A stretch of DNA of 64,000 nucleotides from Candidatus Stahliibacteriota bacterium (lineage in GTDB: Bacteria > Hydrothermota > Tepidihabitantia > SM23-42), in assembly GCA_030609135.1 (NCBI GenBank), contig JAUWCU010000003.1, forward strand, positions 55 to 64,054, in the 5' to 3' direction. Position numbers and translations under genes: made by a program. The notes below the pieces were generated by a model. It made no database searches. It was not told where the DNA came from and was given only the letters and a program-made list of their open reading frames with translations. Positions 16,184 to 49,031 of this stretch are shown here, piece after piece. The stretch's first letter is position 1, and every line of letters begins with the position of its first letter.

Positions 16184-16445
16184 AAGATTGTAGTGGTCGG
16201 ATTCATCCGACATTAATAAAAATGTGCAATAAATTGCACCGCTACAATTATTAATTGTACAACCATCTGAATATTGACATCTGTACTTTTTAATTTGTTC
16301 AAAGATAAACCCCGTAGGACATTTGCTGTCCAACGGGGTAAAGCCTTCTCCACGGTTCAAATTAGATACAAAAGCTTTTTGCTTTAGCAATAGCTGTTCT
16401 ATTTTATACATATCACCGCGGAGAAGACTTTACCATTATCTCTAT

Positions 16446-22826: not shown

Positions 22827-24278
22827 CTAATGAATTGTTTCTCGTATCAATTTTGTACTACGGCAGGATTTTCTTTTGATCGTAAATACTGCATGCATTT
22901 GTTTGGCTACAGCCCTTGCTTTTGATCGGTTGTCACAAATGATTTCTATTAAACATTCGCCTTTTTTTACATAATCACCGATTTTTTGGTTGACTTTAAA
23001 TCCACATGATGGGTCGATTTTGTCTTCCTTTTTAAGTCTACCCCCACCCAATTGTACGAGCAACATGCCGATATCAAAAGTATCAATATGATGTATATAC
23101 CCTGTTTGTTGTGCTTTGATTTTAATTCTATTTTTTGCTACTGGTAAACGTGAATAATCATCAATGATACGAACATCACCACCCTGATAATGAATAATCT
23201 CTTTAAATTTATTTAAGGCTTCACGGTTTGCTATCTTTTTCTCAAGGAGGTTTTTCCCGCCTTTAATTTTAGCGAGCTTAAGCATTGCCTTGCCAAGCTC
23301 GAACGTGACTTCCATCAAATCCTTTGGACCACTGCCCTTTAGCGCCTCGATCGTTTCAATAATCTCTAAAGAATTGCCTATATAGTTACCTAATGGATTA
23401 TTCATATCAGTTAGGATGGCGATGACTTTAACTTGGAATCCCCCGTTGCTTGCGGCGTGGGATGAGATATAATACTCCCTCTCCCTTGAGGGAGAGGGTA
23501 GGGGTGAGGGTGAAATTGAAAGTAAGATACCCTGCCCCAAGGGGCAGGGAGCTTCATTCTTTTTGCAACGAGAGTCTCGTTGCACTCCAAAGCGTTTGCC
23601 GATTTGAATCATGGTCCGCGCAAGCTTTTTTGCTTTTTTATAATCAGTCATGAATGCGCCACTGCCAAATTTCACATCGAGCACCAGACCATCGAGATTT
23701 TCAGCAAGTTTCTTAGACATTATGCTTGCGGCAATGAGAGGGATTGAATCAACCGTTGCTGTTACATCGCGCAAGGCATATATTTTTTTGTCAGCGGGCG
23801 CAATTTCTCCGGTTTGTCCAATCATGGCAACGCCAAGTCTTTTTAACTGGCGCTTGAATGCTTTGAGCGTTAGATTAGTACGAAACCCGGGGATTGATTC
23901 TAATTTGTCTAAAGTACCACCTGTATGACCCAGACCGCGACCCGAAATCATGGGCATACAGATACCACATGATGCCATCAAAGGTGCCAGAATAAGTGAT
24001 ACCTTATCACCGACCCCGCCCGTAGAATGCTTGTCGATCTTTGGCTTTTTAATTTCTGAAAGGTTGAGCATCTTTCCAGTGTGCATCATGGCTTGCATCA
24101 AATCAGTGGTTTCGTTAATATCCATACCCTGAAAATATACCGCCATTAAAAAGGCAGCCAGTTGATAGTCAGGGATATTGTGTTTTGTGTATTCAGAAAT
24201 CAGATACTTTATTTCGTGTTCATTTAATTTTTTACCATCACGTTTTTTACGAATAATATCAAGGACGCTAAATTCCAT
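22827..24278 (-). CDS. pdp: thymidine / pyrimidine-nucleoside phosphorylase carrying a ~50-aa in-frame insertion
   Basis: N-terminal region matches the family (DYQLAAFLMAVYFQGM, KHSTGGVGDKVSL, MISGRGLGHTGGTLDKLESIPGF). The C-terminal ...LTDMNNPLG block is also present. Between IGKRFG and VKVIAILTDM lies an extra segment encoded by three GC-rich hairpins (23434-23583). The likely start is Met29 (MEFSVLDIIRKKRDG). Confidence 0.85.
   Translation of the reverse strand: MEFSVLDIIRKKRDGKKLNEHEIKYLISEYTKHNIPDYQLAAFLMAVYFQGMDINETTDLMQAMMHTGKMLNLSEIKKPKIDKHSTGGVGDKVSLILAPLMASCGICMPMISGRGLGHTGGTLDKLESIPGFRTNLTLKAFKRQLKRLGVAMIGQTGEIAPADKKIYALRDVTATVDSIPLIAASIMSKKLAENLDGLVLDVKFGSGAFMTDYKKAKKLARTMIQIGKRFGVQRDSRCKKNEAPCPLGQGILLSISPSPLPSPSREREYYISSHAASNGGFQVKVIAILTDMNNPLGNYIGNSLEIIETIEALKGSGPKDLMEVTFELGKAMLKLAKIKGGKNLLEKKIANREALNKFKEIIHYQGGDVRIIDDYSRLPVAKNRIKIKAQQTGYIHHIDTFDIGMLLVQLGGGRLKKEDKIDPSCGFKVNQKIGDYVKKGECLIEIICDNRSKARAVAKQMHAVFTIKRKSCRSTKLIRETIH
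23434..23583. repeat. triple-hairpin repeat element inserted in-frame within pdp
   Basis: Three consecutive hairpins: ccctctccc-ttga-gggagaggg, ccctgccc-caag-gggcaggg, ttgcaacgaga-g-tctcgttgcaa. Related GC-rich hairpins occur in intergenic DNA at about 11010-11033 and 25600-25640. Confidence 0.7.
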
Positions 24279-24912
24279 TACACCCCATAGCTTCGCGCAA
24301 TCGCTTGCACGATGCGCATTTACCGCACATTTCTTTTTTGCCAAGATAGCACGAGTAAACATATTGGACAGGCGCCTTGTATTTTAGTCCGAGTTTGTAG
24401 ATTTGTTTCTTTGTATATTCAAGAACAAAGCTCCTCACCTTAACCTTGGTAAGTGTGCTGAACATTAGGGCGTGGTTTATTGCTGCCATGAATTGTGGTC
24501 TGTTGTCCGGGAATTCTTCGGCTTCTTCGCGGTTAAACCCTGTAATAATGAACTCGGCGCCTAAATATTCTGCATAACACGCCGCAATATTTATGAAAAG
24601 ACCATTTCTGTTTGGAATCCAAACGTTCTTTAAGTTGCTAAATTTCCTAATCCTGACATTTTTGGACTGAAGCATAAGGAGTTTCTTGAATTCTTTGAAA
24701 AAAGGTATTTTGATAACCTTGTGTTTGATTTGTAATGCCTTACATATCTTTCTGGATGCGGAAATTTCCATTTTTGCAGCCCGTTGGCCATAATCAAATG
24801 TTAGCGCAAATAGCGGTCTTGTTTTCTTCTTGGCTATTGTCGCGCTGACTAAGGAGTCAAGACCGCCGGATAGGAGGATGATGCTCTTCAATTGGCGAGA
24901 TTGCTTCGTCAT
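24268..24912 (-). CDS. queC: 7-cyano-7-deazaguanine synthase QueC
   Basis: PP-loop SIILLSGGLDS. C-terminal zinc-binding Cys cluster CGKCASCKRL. The ORF-track N-terminal extension (to 25101) is translated from repeat DNA, so the start is more likely the internal Met (MTKQSRQLK...). Confidence 0.85.
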   Translation of the reverse strand: MTKQSRQLKSIILLSGGLDSLVSATIAKKKTRPLFALTFDYGQRAAKMEISASRKICKALQIKHKVIKIPFFKEFKKLLMLQSKNVRIRKFSNLKNVWIPNRNGLFINIAACYAEYLGAEFIITGFNREEAEEFPDNRPQFMAAINHALMFSTLTKVKVRSFVLEYTKKQIYKLGLKYKAPVQYVYSCYLGKKEMCGKCASCKRLREAMGCNGI

Positions 24913-24957
24913 TTCATTCCTCGCAATGACAAGGAGAGAGGGGTTCCTCGCAATGAC
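24908..24957. repeat. tandem duplication (2 x ~25 bp, ttcctcgcaatgacaaggagaga) of the GTCATTGCGAG-family repeat
   Basis: Visible as ...ttcctcgcaatgacaaggagagaggggttcctcgcaatgacaaggagagatg... Same family as 25137-25175, 34180, 34365, 39190, 39656, 47978. Confidence 0.6.
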
Positions 24958-25173
24958 AAGGAGAGATGAGTATTTTCGAATGACGCAAGGAGTAGGGGCT
25001 TTAGCCCCGTCGTATATCGAAGCTTTGAAGATGTGAGGCTCAGAACCTCTGAACTTCTCAACTTCGAGATTGCTTTGGGGCTGCGTGTCTTGCAATGACA
25101 AGAATGGTGGGTATTCTTTGCCCGACCGATGAGTGTGTCATTGCGAGCCTGAACGAAGTTAAGGCGTGGCAAT

Positions 25174-25533
25174 CTAATCTTCATAATATGTGACGGTATT
25201 GTTACGTCCTTCCCACACCGTGACCGCTTTCATCATATTAATTTTTTTCTTCATTTCATTAAAAACATACATCGCGACATATTCTGCGGTGGCATTACGT
25301 TCTTTGAAATATTTAAGCTCATTCAAGTTTTTGTGGTCGAGTTCAGAAAGTATTTCATCAAGCGCGGTTTTCACACGTCTGAAGTCAATAGCCATCCCTA
25401 TATTATCCAGCTTATCCACTTTTAATATTACTCTTACCTGATAAGTATGGCCGTGTATACCAGCACAATCACCAGGATATCCTTTTACCTGGTGTGCTGC
25501 TGAAAATATTCCTTCAACTGAAAGATCAAACAT
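25174..25533 (-). CDS. queD: 6-carboxy-5,6,7,8-tetrahydropterin synthase QueD
   Basis: 119 aa. PTPS-family motifs (CxxxHGH: CAGIHGHTY; E...H). Confidence 0.85.
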   Translation of the reverse strand: MFDLSVEGIFSAAHQVKGYPGDCAGIHGHTYQVRVILKVDKLDNIGMAIDFRRVKTALDEILSELDHKNLNELKYFKERNATAEYVAMYVFNEMKKKINMMKAVTVWEGRNNTVTYYED

Positions 25534-32138: not shown

Positions 32139-32404
32139 CGAACAATAATGATTTTATACTTCGAGCGACCATGAGTTTTACGAATGAGAGTCGAGAATCG
32201 AGCGTTAATAATTGTAGTTGTCCAATTTATTGGACAAAACCTGATAAATCCCGCAATCCTATTCATAACATCATAACACGAAGCGGGATAAATCACCTGT
32301 CTGCGTGCGATGCACAGGCAGGCCTGTCTACCTCAGGCAGAGGCGACTCGAACAATAATGATTTTATACTTCGAGCGACCATGAGCTTTACGAATGAGAG
32401 TCGA
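32139..32404. repeat. composite repeat locus: 56-bp direct repeats (32139-32194 and 32349-32404) flanking three nested hairpin-repeat modules
   Basis: The direct repeat is cgaacaataatgattttatacttcgagcgaccatgag(t/c)tttacgaatgagagtcga. The interior holds a GTAG-headed hairpin (tgtagttgtccaatttattggaca), a GATAAATCCCGC...GCGGGATAAAT palindrome, and cacctgtctgcgtgcgatgcacaggcagg. Confidence 0.6.
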
Positions 32405-34026: not shown

Positions 34027-34473
34027 CTGCAAATACGTCTTCAACAATTCAACAGGACTATTGTCATTACGAGTGTAGTCGAGAACCCTCAACATGATTA
34101 TTGTTCCTCTCACCTTGTTCGAGACAGGCGAGCGAAGTTGAGAACTTCCGCAATATGGGTGATGGCCCTAGATAAAAATGTCATTGCGAAGGCGTAGCCT
34201 GAAGCAATCTCACCTCCTTTTGTCAATCAAGCGCGTGAGGGCATAGTATTTGTAGTGGTCGAGTTTACTCGACAAACATCCCTGCACGCTACGGTATTTG
34301 TGCAGAGCAAGCTCTGCCACTACATATGTTGGGGTAGGTCTTTACACGAGCGGGACTCTGTTTCATGTCATTGCGAATCCGCCGCGTCATATAGCGGACA
34401 AAGTCCCGCAATGCAAGGATCCTCGATTTTCATTTATTAGAAATATATAGTACGGAAAATCGGGATAGTCTCA

Positions 34474-36391: not shown

Positions 36392-37080
36392 ATTCGTAGT
36401 GGTCGAGTTCACTCGACAAACATCCTTGCACGCCACGGTATTTGTGCAGAGCAAGCTCTGCCACTACATGTGTTCTTGATTCGTTCCAGTATCCAACCCA
36501 AACCCTTTTTCCATACTCACAGTTATAGTCGCTCGATTCATCGAGCCAATCTAATGGAGCGTCTGATAAATCAGACAACTACAAAGATTAATCAAATTGT
36601 TACATCATATCATTGTAGTTGCTCGATTCATCGAGCCAATTTACGCGGAAAGCCCCTCAGACTAGCATAATTACTGTTTCTCTCACCTTGTTCGAGACAG
36701 GCGAGCGAAGTCGAGAACCACCCTTTGCATTTTTCGCCGCCCAATTCATCCCGCTTCGTATTGTAATTCTATAAATAGAATTGCGGGATTTATCGGGCCA
36801 ATTTACGCGGAAGTATGTAGTCGCTCGATTCATCGAGCCAATCTAATGGAGCGTCTGATAAATCAGACAACTACAGCGCAGCGTATCTTCAGTGAAACGT
36901 GTCTCCAGCGTAGCGTGTCTTCAACAGAGTGTGTTCTCCATTTCTCCCATACTCCTTTTGTCGATCAAACGCGTGAGGGCATAGTATTTGTAGTGGTCGA
37001 GTTTACTCGACAAACATCCCTGCACGCTACGGTATTTGTGCAGAGCAAGCTCTGCCACTACATGTGTTCGGAATTCCTAA
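36392..37080. repeat. largest cluster of nested small hairpin repeats (about 700 bp, non-coding)
   Basis: Multiple GTAG-headed hairpins (tgtagtggtcgagttcactcgac, tgtagttgctcgattcatcgagc x3, tgtagttgtctgatttatcagac x2). One reversed GATAAATCCCGC element. The tctcaccttgttcgagacaggcgagcgaagtcgagaac element (also at 34100-34145). Duplicated 75-bp block 36392-36466 = 36985-37060. ORFs called here (36153, 36351, 36470, 36846) are repeat-derived. Confidence 0.7.
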
Positions 37081-37165: not shown

Positions 37166-39016
37166 ATGACACTAATAATATTGTTTTTAGCAGGTCAATC
37201 ATTTTTTAACATTGAGAACAAGCAAGTATTCTATCCTGAACCAGTTAGAGCTGAATCAACGCACTCGTATGATGTACTGCACTATTTCATAGATCTGAAC
37301 CTTCCAATGACTTCCCGCTATCTTGAAGGCGCGGTTACGATTTCAGCCCGGAGTAATCAGGATAATTTGACGATTCTTGACCTCCACCTTTTAGGCTTGA
37401 GTGTTGATTCTTTAAAAGTCGATGGAGTTACTGCATCTTACTCCCACAATTACGAGACTTTATATGTGAATCTGCCTCAAGTCTATAATCAGGGTGATTC
37501 CTTTGATATAATGGTGGGATATAGTGGCACGGCTTCGGGCAGCATGGGTTATCTCAGGTATACCAGCACCCACCCCATTTCATATACCCTGGGTTGTCCA
37601 TTCTGCACAAGAAGATGGCTACCCTGTTATGACCGATTATGGGACAAGGCTGATTATGGTGTCGAGTTTTTTATAACTGTACCGGATTCCTATTATGTCT
37701 GCGCTACCGGAGAATTAATTGACGTAGATACTACGGCAGGTTATGCAACATTCAATTGGAAACATAATTATCCTATCGCTCCTTATCTTATTCACTTTGC
37801 TTCAAGCATCTTTACCACATATTCAGATTGGTATTATCCAGCGGCAGGAGATAGCATTGAGATTAAAAATCATTTCTGGCCTGAGGATATGATTTATGCC
37901 CCGACCGCGTTTCAATATACCACAGACATGATGTCTTATTATGATTCGCTTTATGGCGCTTATCCTTTTGAACGCTATGGTATGGTAATACTTCAGCCAT
38001 TCTATTATGCGGGCATGGAACATCAAACCATGAGCTCGATATATCGTACAGGTTTTGTTGGTAATGATTATTACCTGATGGCGCATGAGATGTCGCATAT
38101 GTGGTGGGGTGATATGGTAACGTGTTTTGGTTGGCAGAATGTCTGGCTGAACGAGGGTTTTGCAACATATTCTGATGCCCTGTACCGTGAACACCATGTT
38201 AATCATCAGCTTTTCATTAATACCATGATCTCCCGCCGCAATGCATACTTCAGCTCAGAAGCGTCGTTTCCACATCCGATCTATGACCCGCCGGCAAATC
38301 ATATTTTTAATTGGGGTCATTCTTATTGCAAGGGTTCATGGCTCTGTCATATGATCAGATATTTGTGCGGTGATGATAATACCTGGTTAAACCTGCTTGC
38401 CACATACCGTGATTCATTCGCATATCAAGATGCCTCAAGCGATGATTTGAACCGGATAATGGACCAGGTACTCGGAGGAAATTATGATTGGTTCTTTAAT
38501 GAATGGGTGTATGATCTTTACTATCCAATCTATGATATCGTGTGGGTAAAAATCTATGAATCGCCGAACTGGCGTTTGATTTTGGACATCACTCAAACTC
38601 AACCCATGGGCCCTTCGGTTTTTCATATGCCATTGCCAATCGGCGTAGATTTCTCAAGCGGTGATACAATATTAACGCTCGACATAAATCAATCCCCACA
38701 ACACTTTGAGTATGTATTGCTACAAGAGCCAATGGACATTATCGTTGATCCAGAAACCTGGGTAATTCAAAAAAATACTGTGACCCAGGGTATTGCAGAA
38801 TATGTTGCTCCCGGTATATTTATTGAGAACATCAACACGATCGGTCGGGCAATCGAGCTCAAGCTTACTCAACCCGGTTTAATTCGAATTTTTGATATTA
38901 CAGGCAGAAAGGTCTATGAAACACATGCTCAGGAGGTTAAATATCAACCTTCAAGCGCGGGTATCTACCACGTAATAATCGGTGACAAGAAACAGCGAGT
39001 AGTCGTTGTAAAATAA
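37166..39016 (+). CDS. M1-family zinc metallopeptidase with T9SS C-terminal sorting domain
   Basis: HEMSHMWWGD...NEGFATY (HExxH-x18-E). Exopeptidase-type motif YAGMEHQ (GAMEN variant). C-terminal ~80 aa ending ...AGIYHVIIGDKKQRVVVVK is typical of Por/T9SS CTDs. Consensus promoter plus AGGAGG upstream. Confidence 0.75.
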   Translation: MTLIILFLAGQSFFNIENKQVFYPEPVRAESTHSYDVLHYFIDLNLPMTSRYLEGAVTISARSNQDNLTILDLHLLGLSVDSLKVDGVTASYSHNYETLYVNLPQVYNQGDSFDIMVGYSGTASGSMGYLRYTSTHPISYTLGCPFCTRRWLPCYDRLWDKADYGVEFFITVPDSYYVCATGELIDVDTTAGYATFNWKHNYPIAPYLIHFASSIFTTYSDWYYPAAGDSIEIKNHFWPEDMIYAPTAFQYTTDMMSYYDSLYGAYPFERYGMVILQPFYYAGMEHQTMSSIYRTGFVGNDYYLMAHEMSHMWWGDMVTCFGWQNVWLNEGFATYSDALYREHHVNHQLFINTMISRRNAYFSSEASFPHPIYDPPANHIFNWGHSYCKGSWLCHMIRYLCGDDNTWLNLLATYRDSFAYQDASSDDLNRIMDQVLGGNYDWFFNEWVYDLYYPIYDIVWVKIYESPNWRLILDITQTQPMGPSVFHMPLPIGVDFSSGDTILTLDINQSPQHFEYVLLQEPMDIIVDPETWVIQKNTVTQGIAEYVAPGIFIENINTIGRAIELKLTQPGLIRIFDITGRKVYETHAQEVKYQPSSAGIYHVIIGDKKQRVVVVK

Positions 39017-39382
39017 GTCTGCTGTCATTGCGTAAGTATTTAATAATTGTAGTGGTCGAGTTTACTCGACAAATATCCTTCACGCTGCTTTTGCCCAACT
39101 GTAGTTGCCTCTGCCTGAGGCAGACAGGCCTGCCTGTGCGTCGCACGCAGACAGGTGATTTATCAGGCTGCATCAATCCGCCATCTTATGTCATTGTGAA
39201 GGCGAAGTCCGAAGCAATCTCCAAAAAAGAGATCGCTTCGTTCACACTCGCGATGACAGGAAAAAAATGTTACTGCGAGCGGAATCGAGAACCTTCAGCA
39301 GTAGTATAATATTGTTCTCTCCGTTGCTCCGATACTCCCTTTCACCGTTTCTCCCATTCTCCTGTTCTTGCCCGTTATCACG

Positions 39383-39410
39383 TTGACATATAGCCCTTTC
39401 TCGCTATAAT
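39383..39410 (+). promoter_or_regulatory. sigma70-type promoter with leaderless GTG start
   Basis: TTGACA 39383-39388, N16, TATAAT 39405-39410, GTG 39416. Confidence 0.4.
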
Positions 39411-39415
39411 ATATA

Positions 39416-40618
39416 GTGTCTCAGCAACTAAATATCTTGGTCACCGGCGCCGCCGGCTTTATCGGCTGGAAAGTCTGCGAACTCCTCCTCACCAAACCAG
39501 AGCTAATTCCGAGTGACATAATGACCAATGACTCAATGACTGTTTCTGTTATTGGCATCGACAACCTCAACGACTACTACGACATCCGCCTCAAACAATG
39601 GCGTCTTGAGCAATTAAAGAAGTTAAATAGTCATTGCCAGGAACCTTCCTCTTCCGTCATTGCGAGGAATCCCGAGTTTGTCGAGGGAGACGAAGCAATC
39701 TCACCCAATCGATTCATGTTTCACAAACTCGACATCGAAGACTACGCATCTCTTAAGAAATTGTTCCAAAAATACTCTGTTCATTCAAAAAGTACCGCAC
39801 AAAGTGCTCATAACCGCCCCGACACTTTGAATAAAAGTGTGGGGGCCAAAACCGCATCTTTGATGCCAGAACCGCCGTTTACGGCAGTGATCAATCTCGC
39901 TGCTCGTGCTGGTGTTCGCTACAGTTTGGAAAACCCGTTTGTATATTATACGACAAATGTCATCGGTACTTTAAACCTTCTCGAACTGTGTCGTGAATTT
40001 GGTGTGAAAAAATTCATCCTTGCATCTACTTCATCACTATATGCCGGACAGAAAATGCCTTTTAAAGAGGAGTTACCGGTGAATGAACCCATATCGCCTT
40101 ACGCAGCATCAAAAAAGAGTGCTGAAGTTACCTGTTATACATATCACAATTTGTATGATATCGATGTGACGATTTTAAGGTATTTCACTGTGTATGGACC
40201 AGCATCCAGACCTGATATGAGTCCCTTGCGTTTCATATCCTGGGTATATCAGGAAAAACCTGTTATCATATATGGAGATGGTACCCAGTCACGAGATTTT
40301 ACCTATGTCGATGACATCGCCCGCGGCACAATAATGGCATTAAAACCTTTGGGTTTTGATATAATAAACCTTGGCTGTGATCAACCCCATGAATTGCTCG
40401 AATTTCTTCACATGATTGAGGAGAAGCTGGGCAAGAAAGCAAAGATTGTCAATGAACCCATGCATCCTGCAGACATGAAAGCAACCTGGGCAGATATCAC
40501 TAAAGCTAAGAAAATACTCGGCTGGCAGCCTTCAGTAAGATTGGAACAGGGGCTCGATACTGCGGTTGTTTGGTTCACAAAAAACCGTACCTGGCTTGCT
40601 GATATCAAGCTCTCTTGA
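39416..40618 (+). CDS. NAD-dependent epimerase/dehydratase (UDP-glucuronate 4-epimerase-like) with three extra in-frame segments in the N-terminal Rossmann region
   Basis: ILVTGAAGFIGWKVCELLL ... VIGIDNLNDYYD ... KLDIEDYASLKKLF ... AVINLAARAGVRYSLENP ... YAASKKSAEV (YxxxK). Extra segments sit at about 39495-39545, 39625-39720 and 39765-39880. The middle one contains the repeat gtcattgcgaggaatcccgagtttgtcgagggagacgaagcaatctcac (39656-39704). Confidence 0.75.
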   Translation: MSQQLNILVTGAAGFIGWKVCELLLTKPELIPSDIMTNDSMTVSVIGIDNLNDYYDIRLKQWRLEQLKKLNSHCQEPSSSVIARNPEFVEGDEAISPNRFMFHKLDIEDYASLKKLFQKYSVHSKSTAQSAHNRPDTLNKSVGAKTASLMPEPPFTAVINLAARAGVRYSLENPFVYYTTNVIGTLNLLELCREFGVKKFILASTSSLYAGQKMPFKEELPVNEPISPYAASKKSAEVTCYTYHNLYDIDVTILRYFTVYGPASRPDMSPLRFISWVYQEKPVIIYGDGTQSRDFTYVDDIARGTIMALKPLGFDIINLGCDQPHELLEFLHMIEEKLGKKAKIVNEPMHPADMKATWADITKAKKILGWQPSVRLEQGLDTAVVWFTKNRTWLADIKLS

Positions 40619-42587: not shown

Positions 42588-42758
42588 TAATATGAGGACC
42601 TTTTTATCGAAACAATTATCGGTAAAAATTTTAAGACCCCAAAAAGTGCATTCGCGTGTTGACAAAGACAAAACCAATGATTATAATTATAATATGAATT
42701 TTGATACCACGAAGTTTTGGGGAAAATTAAATTATTACTAAAAAGACAAGGAGGAAAT

Positions 42759-45069
42759 ATGAAAAGAGTGGTCATTGGGATATGTGCAATAGTGATAGGG
42801 TTTATGCCCTTGTCCATCTATGGTTCTGAAATTGCAACTGTAACTTTGGAAACCTGGATGAATGCTTCCCAGGGTTTTGAACCAAACCTTGGTCAGATTG
42901 GCGATTTTGAAGGGAATGTGGTTAATAATATCTTGTGCGCTTTCAAGGGTAATGGACTTGGTATATTCATTAATGAAAAAGGGGTAAGTTATGTTATTTA
43001 TCAAGCGGAAAAAATCTTAAGAGATGAGTCCCAGAGAATTGATTTAAGAGAACCTGAAAAAAATCTTATCCACTATGCAAGGATTGATGTGGAGCTTGTG
43101 AATTCCAATTTTGAAAAGTCAAAAATCGTTTATGAAGATGAGCTACCCGGATATGCGCATTATTATTTGCCACAATGTCCTGATGGTATTCTTTATGTGA
43201 AAAGTTTCAGAAAGGTGCGGATTAAAGAGATATATCCGGGCGTTGACTGGATATGGAAATATGAAGATGGACGGTTGCATCATGAATTTGAGGTCAAACC
43301 TGCGTCTGATGTTTCAAAGATAAAGATGAAGGTTAAATGGGCTGATGTTGAGATAAGCGAAAATGGTAGAAAACTTATATATTCTACGCCACTTGGTAAG
43401 ATAAAAGATGGAAATATACTTGGTTATGAAAATCCGAAATCCAAAATCCGAAATCCGAGACCGATTGATATTTCTTATATAAAAAATGAAGATGGGATAA
43501 TTTCCTTTGAAATAAAGAATTATTCCGGTAAAAATCCTCTAATTATTGACCCACCCCTTGCACTATTATGGGGGACATATTACGGAGGCAATGATCCTGA
43601 TCGTGGCTATTCAATTACAACCGATAATTCAGGTAATATTTTTGTAACTGGGACCACTTATTCAACAGAATTTTCCCACACAAGACCCCGGTGGTGGTGC
43701 TTATTATCAAGGTACAAAAGCAGGATATTTTGATGTATTTGTTTTAAAGTTTACAAATACAGGGGTTCGGCTTTGGGCGACATATTACGGAGGAAATGAC
43801 AGAGATGGGGGCGCTTCAATTATAACTGACAATTCAGGTAATGTTTTTGTAGGTGGAACCACCTATTCAACAGATTTTGCCACACAGGACCCTGGCGGTG
43901 GTGCTTATTATCAAGGAACATTTGCAGGTGTTGGTGATGCATTTATTTTGAAGTTTACAAATGTTGGTATTCGCCTCTGGGCAACATATTACGGCGGAAA
44001 TGATAGTGATATGGTGTGTTCGATTACCACTGATAATTCAGGTAATGTTTTTATAACTGGGTGGACTCTTTCAACAGATTTTCCCATACAGGACCCTGGC
44101 GGTGGTGCCTATTATCAGGGAGCAAATGCAGGTTATAGAGATGCATTTATTTTGAAGTTTACAAATACGGGTGTTCGTCAATGGGCAACGTATTACGGAG
44201 GAAATGCTGGTGATTGGTGCAATTCAATTACAGCGGATAGTTCAGGTAATGTTTTTATAGCCGGATACACCTATTCAACAAATTTCCCCACATATGACCC
44301 CGGGGGAGGTGCTTATTATCAGGAAACACTTGGAGGTGTTCATGATGCATTTATTTTGAAGTTTACAAATACCGGTGTTCGGCAAAGGGCGACATATTAC
44401 GGCGGAAATAATGAGGATATGTGTAATTCAGTTACAACTGATGCTTCAGGTAATATTTTTGTGACTGGATACACTTTTTCACCAGATTTTCCCACATATG
44501 ACCCCGGGGGAGGTGCTTATTATCAGGGAGCACTTGCAGGCGGATATGATGCATTTGTCTTGAAGTTTACAAATAGCGGTATTCGCCAATGGGCAACGTA
44601 TTACGGAGGAAATGATGTGGATTGTGGCTTTTCAATTAAAACCGATAATTCAGGTAATGTTTTTGTAACTGGACTAACTGTTTCAACAAATTTCCCAACA
44701 CAGGACCCTGGCGGTGGTGCTTATTATCAGGGGACACATGCAGGTGTTGGTGATGTATTTCTTTTGAAGTTTGAAACTTCACTGGGAATTGTAGAGGAAA
44801 ATACTAAAAAGAATGAGCCTTCGGTTCTAATTATTTCTTCTATCTTTATCAACAGAATACGAATAGACCTTTCATTATCTTCTAAAAAACCCATGGCTCT
44901 TATCCTTTATAATTTATTGGGGCAGAAAATCTTTTCAAGGTCTTATCCTGAAACTAAGTCTCTTATTATAAGAGGCAGAGAGATTGAAGAATTGAGTAAA
45001 GGAATATATTTCTTATCTGTCTATTCAGGAAAAAAAGAGATTGGCAGGGTTAAGCTGATAAAGAGATAA
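42759..45069 (+). pseudogene. SBBP (beta-propeller) repeat protein with T9SS C-terminal domain, disrupted by a +1 frameshift near 43669-43670 (assembly error not excluded)
   Basis: ORF-track pieces 42717-43733 and 43948-45069 are one gene. The repeat [16 protein letters not shown]...WATYYGGND reads through in the alternate frame after an extra A in tcaacagAAttttccc (other repeats have tcaacagAttttccc). Six ~204-bp tandem repeats. The likely real start is ATG 42759 after AAGGAGG. C-terminus ...[22 protein letters not shown]. Confidence 0.6.
43560..44780 (+). repeat. six tandem ~204-bp (68-aa) intragenic repeats encoding SBBP blades
   Basis: The tattacggaggaaatga core recurs at about 43579, 43786, 43987, 44196, 44397, 44601 with high nucleotide identity. 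Confidence 0.8.
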
Positions 45070-47931: not shown

Positions 47932-48053
47932 AAATTGTTTTTAAAATAAGAAATTCTGTAACAATTAGAACTCTTGTTATTGCGAGCCCACACACCAATG
48001 CATTGGTGTGCGGGCGTGGCAATCTCTATTTAGGATATCTGCAATTAAAAAAT

Positions 48054-49031
48054 CTATTTATTAACTTCATTAGCTAAGTACCAATCTATCATTCTTCGGA
48101 ACCCTTCTGTTATCTCTATCTTTTGTATAAACCCCTGTTCTCGTATTTTCTCTGCTTTATGGTGTGTAGCGGTAGCGAACTTCTTCATTCTTGCGGCGGT
48201 AATGGGAAGGTTGCGTCCTGTTATCTTGGCAAGGAGATCAAATATGCTGCCGAGAGATACTGCAAGAAATAAAGGTAGTTTGATTTTCGGTGCACCATAA
48301 GGCAGGCATGTGCCAATCACGTCTACTATCTGAGCTATAGTCATTTGTGGTTCATCAGAATAAGAGAAAATCTGAATACCAGGTTTTAGTTTGTCAATCA
48401 AGAATATGTTTGCATCCACTAAATTTTCTACATAAGCAACCGATTTTATATTATCACCTTTACCAACAAAAACAAATTTCTTCTTGTATATTTTGTCAAT
48501 TAAATTATAAACATTCGCGAAATTATTTGGCCCAAATATTACAGATGGTCTAATAATTATTACATTTCTGCTTTTGTCATCATCAACCCACTTCTGTATA
48601 ACTTTTTCTGCAGCCAGTTTCGATTCACCATAATTATTATCTGGTTGCGGAATAGTATTTTCAGTGCTGGGTTCGTCGTTTGTTCCGTATACTGCCACAG
48701 AGCTATAGAAAATCAGCTTCTTGATCTGCAATTTGGCTGCGCAGTCGAGCAGCATTTGGGTACCGGTTTCATTTACGTGAAAGAATTCTTCCCTTGTGAC
48801 GCCAAAATCATGGTGTTTTGCTGCGAGCGTAATGATTAAATCCACGCCCCGCGCTGCTTTAAGGATATCTTCAGGACATAGCATATTACCAACAAGGCAA
48901 GTGCAGAGCTTATTCAGTTCTTTTGGACCAGGGTTGATATCCAAGCCAATGACTTCATGTTTTTTCTCGACAAGCTTCTTAACCAGAAATTGACCGATAA
49001 AACCTGTGGAACCTATCACCAGTATTTTCAT
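48054..49031 (-). CDS. NAD-dependent epimerase/dehydratase family protein (SDR)
   Basis: MKILVIGSTGFIGQFLVKKL Rossmann motif. YGESKLAAE (YxxxK). Confidence 0.75.
   Translation of the reverse strand: MKILVIGSTGFIGQFLVKKLVEKKHEVIGLDINPGPKELNKLCTCLVGNMLCPEDILKAARGVDLIITLAAKHHDFGVTREEFFHVNETGTQMLLDCAAKLQIKKLIFYSSVAVYGTNDEPSTENTIPQPDNNYGESKLAAEKVIQKWVDDDKSRNVIIIRPSVIFGPNNFANVYNLIDKIYKKKFVFVGKGDNIKSVAYVENLVDANIFLIDKLKPGIQIFSYSDEPQMTIAQIVDVIGTCLPYGAPKIKLPLFLAVSLGSIFDLLAKITGRNLPITAARMKKFATATHHKAEKIREQGFIQKIEITEGFRRMIDWYLANEVNK

Follow-up and report, generated by a model that had tools for sequence, protein, structure and literature searches.

Introduction

Short palindromic repeats inside genes are known from Rickettsia. 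A review describes Rickettsia palindromic elements (RPEs) as inserted in frame in many genes and as judged acceptable to the protein fold (Ogata et al. 2000 Science, 2002 Genome Res, cited in PMC10969869), and it treats in-frame palindrome insertion beyond Rickettsia as merely conceivable (PMC10969869). Repetitive extragenic palindromic (REP) sequences, bacterial interspersed mosaic elements (BIMEs) and the REP doublets called REPINs form a second group of short repeats, mobilized by REP-associated tyrosine transposases (RAYTs) (Bertels & Rainey 2011, PMC3116915; PMC3337134). Here we analyze a 64,000-nt stretch of contig JAUWCU010000003.1 from a Candidatus Stahliibacteriota bacterium (the window), in which a gene for a UDP-sugar epimerase carries three in-frame extra segments, sites 1 to 3, in its N-terminal Rossmann region. 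Sequence comparison and structural modelling suggest that this is probably a working epimerase with three alpha-to-beta loops that were colonized by short repeats of a non-coding kind, plentiful in the genomes of candidate division WOR-3 (Candidatus Stahlbacteria).

The epimerase and its three extra segments

The 400-residue protein matches the Pfam families Epimerase (E = 1.4e-49) and GDP_Man_Dehyd (E = 1.7e-52); the match is one continuous stretch only from about residue 138 onward, and the N-terminal domain is therefore interrupted. The blocks that the original prediction had quoted as retained from the canonical Rossmann region (GAAGFIG, VIGIDNLNDYYD, KLDIEDYASL and AVINLAARAGVRYS) are all present in the translation of the open reading frame (ORF) at 39416..40618. 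The closest solved structures are the Klebsiella NAD-dependent epimerase 5u4q and the Bacillus cereus UDP-glucuronic acid 4-epimerase 6zl6, the latter enzyme giving the best matches (6zl6/6zlk, E = 2e-55). It is also the best Foldseek match of the predicted model (TM 0.85-0.89, target-normalized), and the JGI annotation calls some homologs UDP-glucuronate 4-epimerase. Because no NCBIfam equivalog reaches its cut-off for the 400-residue protein, we name it only as a UDP-sugar 4-epimerase of the extended short-chain dehydrogenase/reductase (SDR) type, with UDP-glucuronate as its probable substrate.

In an alignment of 102 sequences, the three glycines of the GxxGxxG motif (G11, G14 and G17 of GAAGFIG, residues 11-17), the NLAA stretch (N160-A163) and the catalytic set S204/S206/S207 and Y229-A-A-S-K233 are invariant, so that YxxxK, where a pseudogene would be expected to have accumulated substitutions, is not decayed. 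The core is 0.74-0.89 identical to orthologs in amino acids vs 0.44-0.61 at third codon positions, as expected under purifying selection. The orthologs come from candidate division WOR-3 / Candidatus Stahlbacteria, and the gene lies in a conserved neighborhood of polysaccharide-synthesis genes.

The limits of the extra segments were set by alignment with the 120 best homologs from a collection of 5.8 billion proteins, and this alignment bears out three segments between the blocks, at amino acids 28-44, 70-99 and 121-156. In the shortest relatives (321-324 amino acids), each site is 3-4 residues long (GHQ / YKN / SFD); compared with them, the window protein has about 14, 27 and 33 extra residues, about 74 in all. 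As predicted, the reading frame is open and free of stop codons across all three sites. Inteins, introns and translational bypassing were dropped as candidates, the inserts being stop-free, in frame and far too short for inteins or introns, and signals for bypassing being unnecessary.

The alignment with 5u4q has a 14-residue gap at query residues 27-40, at site 1. In the predicted model, site 1 joins helix 15-26 to strand 42-49, site 2 joins helix 57-73 to strand 100-104, and site 3 joins helix 110-124 to strand 157-160. AlphaFold modelling on the 102-sequence alignment, a check that had been proposed with the prediction, gave a predicted TM score (pTM) of 0.84 with a confident core and low-confidence loops at sites 2 and 3, where the predicted local distance difference test (pLDDT) is 45-60 and 46-59, respectively; both loops are predicted to be disordered. 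Rossmann folds bind the dinucleotide at the C-terminal edge of the sheet, and their alpha-to-beta loops lie at the opposite edge. It follows from this topology that all three loops should sit on the sheet edge opposite the NAD site, and insertions would be tolerated there because of this position. Fold topology and the low pLDDT of sites 2 and 3 place the inserts at the modelled protein surface, away from functional sites.

Site 2 and its dispersed element family

The middle insert had been described as a copy, at 39656-39704, of an element otherwise found between genes. It is a true copy with exact ends, but it extends over 39656-39702 and is preceded by a half copy, so that the element-derived stretch (half copy, pyrimidine-rich spacer and full copy) spans 39630-39702. 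This composite has the same architecture as the intergenic tandem at 24957-24897 (-), which also consists of a half copy, a CT-rich spacer and a full copy. The in-gene copy has 14-15-nt exact ends in common with intergenic copies, and its centre TCCCGAGTTTGTCGAGGGA matches the centre TCCTGAGTTTATCGAAGGA of an intergenic subfamily in three related loci (L003, L005 and L023).

At the same codon position and with the same flanks, related genomes carry a simple 34-nt element, GTCATTGCGAGGAGAGTAGCGACGAAGCAATCTC, read as HCEESSDEAIS. This simple form is present in L002, L003 and L018, and 39 nt more are present in the window, L013 and L020. Because position and flanks coincide, we take the window allele to be the simple 34-nt insertion plus 39 nested nucleotides. 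Empty alleles carry three residues, YPN, which are replaced in the filled alleles. An AATCG repeat that flanks the element in L003 was considered as a target-site duplication; it is not kept in the window and was not relied on. The sequence evidence strongly supports a repeat-derived site 2, and copies of the same family lie outside genes.

In the window, the GTCATTGCGAG end has 11 matches at up to one mismatch vs 0.87 expected (0 of 100 shuffles reach 11), and the GAAGCAATCTC end has 8 matches vs 1.06 expected, an over-representation of about 8-12-fold. The copies listed in the original prediction were verified at 24897-24957, 25137, 34180, 34367 (left end only), 39190 and 47976, and two more were found at 25066-25099 (-) and 39229-39257 (-). 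All lie outside long ORFs, as had been claimed, except that the tandem at 24897-24957 overlaps the 5' end of queC. The likely queC start MTKQSRQLKSIILLSGGLDS lies inside the element copy 24897-24930 (-) (…GAAATGACGAAGCAATCTC…); the QueC profile begins at residue 13, and both the start codon and the first residues seem to come from the element.

A wider census over 382 kb (the window and 35 further loci) found about 38 element copies, about 24 of them intergenic; the copies within ORFs are all in the epimerase, the queC 5' end excepted. The family comprises elements of 28-60 nt with conserved ends and a variable centre. Intergenic copies have variable central hairpins, several of them GNA-type mini-hairpins (GCGAAGC, GCGTAGC), with fold z-scores of -2.2 to -4.6, and are preceded by a T-rich flank. 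The subtypes GTCATTGCGAG…GCAATCT and GTCATCGCGAG…GCGATCT frequently form inverted pairs a few bases apart. One pair lies upstream of the epimerase gene, with members GTCATTG…GCAATCT (+, 39190-39221) and GTCATCGCGAG…GCGATCT (-, 39229-39257) and the spacer CAAAAAA; further pairs occur in L003 (5323/5371 and 7552/7607), L005 (1607/1662), L015 (178/234) and L023 (5901/5973). In L013 (4291-4347), L015 (2736-2772), L016 (11124-11180) and L019 (3971-4003), an element copy also follows the epimerase stop codon at a distance of about 20 nt. This post-stop copy is conserved, and the length of its central hairpin differs between the genomes. In the same four loci the epimerase is followed by RHH/PIN and NTase/HEPN toxin-antitoxin pairs; in the window, a methyltransferase stands there instead.

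A scan of the whole window with Rfam at gathering thresholds returned tRNA only, permissive E-values over 39000-39950 gave no match, and a literature search by the element sequence string returned unrelated primers only.

Sites 1 and 3

Site 3 contains a module of three hairpins (Table 1). Folded as single-stranded DNA it reaches -17.9 kcal/mol (z = -4.05), and 0 of 200 shuffles fold as well. The 31-nt near-palindrome of the second hairpin encodes the piece PDTLNKSVGAK, and the close homolog P0001 is without that piece. In an alignment of seven ortholog DNAs with the same module, the stems are paired in 92.7% of cells and six pairs are changed on both sides, a covariation to be read with the caveat that there are only seven sequences and that the structure was derived from them. 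Double changes in the middle hairpin give TCGC/GCGA, CAGC/GCTG and TAGC/GCTA, and those in the third give GCATC/GATGC vs GCGTC/GACGC. None of 500 shuffles reaches the observed pairing values, sliding the partners leaves 15-38% paired, and the loops vary freely (AAA, GAA, AGA; TTT, AAA, CTC, GCA). These comparisons give good support to the palindromic nature of site 3. Its left arm has no outside copy among viral contigs.

Site 1 begins with PELIP, a conserved, clade-wide loop extension modelled with pLDDT >90; the cassette proper is only about 12 residues. It is not palindromic (fold z = +0.85). Other site 1 alleles are periodic too, built of AATNACYY units or AACGNTNNN units, and a 7-9-nt periodicity is found in all variants. 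The window holds no other copy of the cassette. The exact 23-mer ATAATGACCAATGACTCAATGAC (39518-39540) was found in 11 contigs in a metagenome-wide scan. Three of them are epimerase genes, and the other eight represent five distinct loci that are stop-rich, non-coding-looking and rich in tandem repeats; two of these five match the gene cassette over 27-28 identical nt. By this sequence match, the site 1 sequence circulates outside the epimerase gene. Site 1 would be repeat-derived in a looser sense, and its relation to a dispersed family is weak. The outside contigs are L021, L024-L027 and L029-L031, four of which are one locus from different samples, and their loci are packed with 7-9-nt tandem repeats (AAGCAAT, GTCAATAA, GATAAGTGC).

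The claim that all three inserts are repeat-derived stands for site 2, an element copy. Site 3 is a palindrome with no outside copy in 382 kb and may be repeat-derived; the claim holds in part for site 1, which is not palindromic and has its 23-mer outside. The proposed search for the insert sequences as DNA returned copies of site 2 in the window and related loci, none of sites 1 and 3 there outside epimerase genes, and the site 1 23-mer in metagenome contigs.

Cassette mosaic among orthologs

About 100 WOR-3/Stahlbacteria orthologs combine at least 10 cassette types at the same three loops. The types are MTNDS, ITQLPNN, GEGKGEG (short and long) and NDxNDIN at site 1; empty, HCEE-DEAIS, composite, ICVNQ and IRPIRSHSS at site 2; and 3 amino acids, a 14-amino-acid base form, VIASEAKQS, AHNR-TAS, GEGKGEG, SSKNSFP and combinations at site 3. 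VIASEAKQS at site 3 is an element of the GTCATTGCGAG family read in another frame, AHNR-TAS is the hairpin module, and the ortholog cassette SPLxGEGKGEGV matches window positions 23476-23512 (E = 1.6e-6). Equivalent segments in homologs without any likeness to repeats would have spoken for ordinary loops; instead, HCEE…DEAIS, VIASEAKQS and SPLxGEGKGEGV are visibly repeat-derived.

On a neighbour-joining tree of 306 core columns, the cassettes are almost as scattered as at random: HCEE-DEAIS, at 12 tips, requires 12 Fitch steps, the mean of the shuffles being 11.6. L016 and the window are syntenic (both have the M1 peptidase, arginase and Fe-S genes upstream; 88-95% nucleotide identity), and they differ at all three sites.

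Third codon positions of shared cassettes were compared with those of adjacent core codons only, a baseline that we adopted because conservation is higher in the N-terminal core than elsewhere in the gene. The window and L013 differ at 2 of 30 third positions of site 2 vs 39 of 93 in the adjacent core (p = 1.5e-4); L002 and L018 differ at 0 of 17 cassette third positions vs 30 of 71 (p = 3e-4); at site 1, the window and L004 differ at 2 of 17 vs 44 of 93 (p = 0.005). On this baseline, sites 1 and 2 and the SSKNSFP cassette all show the lower third-position divergence. Compared with the whole-gene rate, the site 3 cassette of the window, whose length differs from that in L017, was not more conserved overall (16/90, P = 0.58), but its third positions were (5/30, P = 0.007). 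The centre of the site 2 cassette is the same in every lineage and the centres of intergenic copies differ from one another, which argues for a single origin followed by spread and not for repeated insertion.

Two epimerase copies with different cassette sets (P0004, P0021) are found on different contigs (L003, L005) of the metagenome-assembled genome (MAG) JBARXC01; they could be paralogs, or the bin could be mixed. P0059, a protein of 379 amino acids from an ENA contig, has an unrelated N-terminus up to site 3 and an AHNR-TAS cassette nearly identical to that of the window, and may be a frameshifted or rearranged allele.

Breadth of in-frame insertion

The pyrimidine-nucleoside phosphorylase gene pdp also carries an in-frame insert (Table 1). 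It contains a copy of a CTCTCCC…GGGAGAGGGTAGGGGTGAGGG family at 23476-23512, with the palindromic repeat CTCTCCCTTGAGGGAGAGGGTAGGGGTGAGGG, read as SPSPLPSPSRERE, and this GEGKGEG-type family fills epimerase sites 1 and 3 in other genomes. The paralogous SDR at 48054-49031 (-), of 325 amino acids, is without inserts. The suggestion of a genome-wide habit was therefore too broad: over the 382 kb, in-frame copies of the GTCATTGCGAG family are in the epimerase only, the pdp insert belongs to another family, and the SDR paralog is insert-free. The epimerase looks like an insertion hot spot, possibly because three of its loops are permissive and element clusters lie densely to either side of it.

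Table 1. Positions of the epimerase gene, its inserts, the element copies and the pdp insert in the window
Feature	Position (nt)	Strand	Description
Epimerase ORF	39416..40618	+	400 amino acids, GTG start
Site 1	39497..39547	+	amino acids 28-44, PELIPSDIMTNDSMTVS; alphaA-to-beta2 loop
Site 1 cassette	39512-39547	+	7-8-nt tandem-type units GTGACATA ATGACCA ATGACTCA ATGACTGT
Site 2	39623..39712	+	amino acids 70-99, LNSHCQEPSSSVIARNPEFVEGDEAISPNR; alphaB-to-beta3 loop
Site 2, half copy and spacer	39630..39655	+	degenerate half copy GTCATTGCCAGGAAC and pyrimidine-rich spacer; counterpart is the first unit of the tandem, 24957-24931 (-)
Site 2, full element copy	39656..39702	+	GTCATTGCGAG-GAATCCCGAGTTTGTCGAGGGAGAC-GAAGCAATCTC; both 11-mer ends exact
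Site 3	39776..39883	+	amino acids 121-156, SVHSKSTAQSAHNRPDTLNKSVGAKTASLMPEPPFT; alphaC-to-beta4 loop
Site 3, three-hairpin module	39794..39876	+	conserved ACCGCA…AACCGC arms; from fold and covariation
Hairpin H1	39797-39807	+	GCAC AAA GTGC
Hairpin H2	39816-39846	+	31-nt near-palindrome; enlarged nested version of the 11-nt hairpin of orthologs
Hairpin H3	39854-39866	+	GCATC TTT GATGC
Inverted pair of element copies	39190..39257	both	160 nt upstream of the epimerase gene
Tandem half and full copy	24897..24957	-	intergenic or 5' of queC; nearest in-window relative of the in-gene composite
Element copy	25066..25099	-	intergenic
Element copy	25137..25175	+	intergenic; right-end variant GGCAATCT
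Element copy	34180..34211	+	intergenic; GCGTAGC mini-hairpin centre; fold z = -2.2
Element copy	47976..48026	+	intergenic; long central hairpin; fold z = -4.55; just 3' of the SDR gene 48054-49031 (-)
pdp ORF	22827-24362	-	pyrimidine-nucleoside phosphorylase; carries an insert
pdp insert	23427..23582	-	52 residues, in frame; by comparison with solved pyrimidine-nucleoside phosphorylases (PDB 1brw)

Other repeats in the window

The intergenic DNA of the window is unusually dense in repeats. Other intergenic families lie at 16187, 32211, 34249, 36393, 36987 and 39046 and at 2549-2663, 8368, 29630, 32234 and 36518-36852. Some window repeats have the GTAG-plus-hairpin design typical of REPs, e.g. 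TGTAGTGGTCGAGTTTACTCGACA, and a further family of 50-70 nt has the form GATAAATCCCGCAAT…CGAAGCGGGATAAATC. A 67-nt inverted repeat pair (32282-32348 / 39103-39169) is 93% complementary over a distance of 6.7 kb, with one arm just upstream of the epimerase gene. Downstream, positions 43569-44784 hold five to six tandem 204-nt units (76-81% identical) in the adjacent SBBP beta-propeller ORFs 42717-43733 and 43948-45069, which may be one split gene.

Competing explanations

The repeats would have entered the gene as small non-autonomous hairpin elements of the REP/REPIN type or of the MITE (miniature inverted-repeat transposable element) type, moved in trans by an enzyme; for site 1, slippage is an alternative origin. 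Only copies free of stop codons, a multiple of three in length and placed in permissive surface loops would have survived, and resident copies would then have attracted further insertions, nested in them, or have been duplicated internally. Cassettes may have been shuffled among lineages when diverged alleles underwent homologous recombination, and the segments would be translated as disordered surface loops with little effect on catalysis.

Several results weigh against this account. The junction between filled and empty site 2 alleles has no evident target-site duplication, YPN being replaced and not flanked. The in-gene site 2 copy folds no better than shuffles (z about 0), its hairpin potential being lost. 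No transposase (RAYT, IS200/IS605-type or other) was found among 13 profile-scanned window ORFs or in the precomputed annotations of the fetched loci. Outside epimerase genes, 316-382 kb of WOR-3 sequence yielded neither the site 1 cassette nor the site 3 module, and the evidence for their origin as dispersed repeats is indirect. The neighbour-joining tree is weakly resolved, which leaves the count of independent events uncertain. Finally, L020 (JGI 3300040951), 99-100% identical to the window, is without positions 40225-40270 (46 nt), a loss that splits its ORF into 290 and 94 amino acids; the gene may be dispensable, with strain-level decay, or the contig may be mis-assembled. The sequence upstream of the epimerase gene in L020 is unrelated to the window.

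A bolder form of the colonization account, speculative and in our judgment rather doubtful, would give WOR-3/Stahlbacteria a class of hairpin elements not described before: ultra-short (28-60 nt), fixed at their ends, free-form in their central hairpin and integrating into coding DNA; the loops would be a cassette system shuffled by recombination, and the hairpins would be actively maintained. Active maintenance of the intragenic hairpins is suggested by stem changes that compensate one another and by third positions more conserved than coding would require. If true, the intragenic hairpins would be selected nucleic-acid elements inside an enzyme gene and not passive debris.

An unlikely rival is that the cassettes are kept for a useful nucleic-acid structure acting in transcript stability, pausing, translation rate or recombination signals, with the peptide as a by-product. 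At site 3 the stems covary as the loops and the encoded residues vary, shared cassettes differ less at third positions than the core codons next to them, and the copies about 20 nt after the epimerase stop in L013, L015, L016 and L019 occupy the position from which REP-like hairpins usually affect the 3' ends of mRNAs. However, many close orthologs are without a given cassette and keep a 3-residue loop, so that none is required; the site 2 copy of the window does not fold better than its shuffles; no Rfam family matches the cassettes; and covariation is also expected if orthologs received different members of a hairpin-maintaining repeat family.

Ordinary lineage-specific growth of the loops by slippage and point mutation, with the likeness to repeats coincidental or the gene seeding the intergenic copies, is quite improbable. 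The 7-9-nt periodicity of all site 1 variants would fit it, as would the conserved and confidently modelled PELIP part and the lack of a copy of the site 1 and site 3 cassettes elsewhere in the window. But at site 2 both 11-mer ends are exact and spaced as in the family, and the centre is found in intergenic copies of other genomes; for this site loop growth was rejected on exact ends, spacing and common centre. The GEGKGEG-type cassettes of orthologs match a repeat in a different window gene (E = 1.6e-6), and the site 1 23-mer occurs in unrelated non-coding contexts. About 24 intergenic copies have differing centres vs one fixed centre in the gene, which points to the gene as the recipient.

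That the inserts are tolerated in a decaying pseudogene is very improbable. The split ORF of L020 and the scrambled N-terminus of P0059 would be in line with decay, but in the window the ORF is complete and no catalytic motif is missing, independent assemblies supply more than 100 homologs that bear inserts and are nevertheless full-length and in frame, the core combines high amino acid with low third-position identity, and the gene keeps its conserved polysaccharide-synthesis neighborhood. Chimeric joins at repeats in metagenome contigs are hardly credible as an explanation: every sequence comes from a metagenome assembly, and assemblers can be misled by short repeats, but reads are far longer than the elements, the same cassettes stand in frame at identical positions in independent JGI, ENA, NCBI and Logan assemblies, and the flanks are collinear with the syntenic locus.

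Significance and comparison with known systems

Colonization of the three loops, as favored here, would provide a natural series in which one fold comes in dozens of variants with loop insertions, showing which insertions a Rossmann domain tolerates and usable to test selection on repeat hairpins within coding sequence. The turnover rate of the cassettes can be read from it; at about 90% identity, genomes are already different at each of the three sites. For annotators, odd low-complexity segments in proteins of repeat-rich MAGs may be real. The repeated striking of the same three permissive loops of one enzyme by different repeat families is apparently an undescribed feature.

REPs and REPINs resemble the window elements in being short (about 20-40 nt), hairpin-forming, abundant intergenic repeats, often just downstream of genes, and in occurring as two subtypes in inverted pairs with a short spacer, as at 39190-39257 and in L003, L005, L015 and L023. 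They differ in that REPs are by definition extragenic, whereas copies here are in coding sequence, and in that the whole REP palindrome is conserved, whereas the conserved ends GTCATTGCGAG and GAAGCAATCTC flank a free centre here. The 5' GTAG tetranucleotide is absent from the GTCATTGCGAG family and present in other window repeats such as TGTAGTGGTCGAGTTTACTCGACA.

Bacterial MITEs (Correia/NEMIS, ERIC, BOX and cyanobacterial elements) are likewise small non-autonomous repeats with occasional in-frame ORF fusions (PMC10969869). They have terminal inverted repeats and target-site duplications from a parent insertion sequence, neither of which is evident here, and the window elements are several-fold shorter. 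The two element ends are linked only by the 5-bp complementarity ATTGC/GCAAT, which does not amount to a terminal inverted repeat.

Short tandemly repeated repetitive (STRR) sequences are heptamer repeats that form intergenic arrays in cyanobacteria. The TGACCAA unit of window site 1 is the reverse complement of what we take to be the cyanobacterial STRR2 unit, TTGGTCA. Site 1 cassettes resemble STRRs as runs of 7-9-nt units and differ from them in that a run of 3-4 units lies within the reading frame of a WOR-3 gene and is shared unchanged by diverged orthologs.

By analogy, the closest precedent of the epimerase inserts would be the RPEs, and the inserts appear to be of the same kind. Both are short palindromic repeats in frame in unrelated housekeeping genes, translated as extra peptide compatible with the fold, and in both there are several repeat families with copies also between genes. 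RPEs are about 100-150 bp long and the window elements 28-60 nt; the RPE host is an obligate intracellular alphaproteobacterium, and the host here a free-living member of WOR-3/Stahlbacteria. Here, three loops of one gene hold different families and nested copies, with a mosaic among orthologs and a REPIN-like intergenic organization, and cassettes turn over rapidly, whereas RPE insertions are mostly single and stable per gene. The likening is by description; size and host phylum differ, and we would place the inserts with the RPE kind, with no claim that they belong to the RPE families themselves. The in-frame colonization of housekeeping genes by selfish palindromes has so far been largely a Rickettsia curiosity; here it appears in a free-living candidate phylum and with much shorter elements. 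The observation is solid, and by analogy it would be the same phenomenon as that of the RPEs, differing in phylum, element size, organization and the reuse of the same loops.

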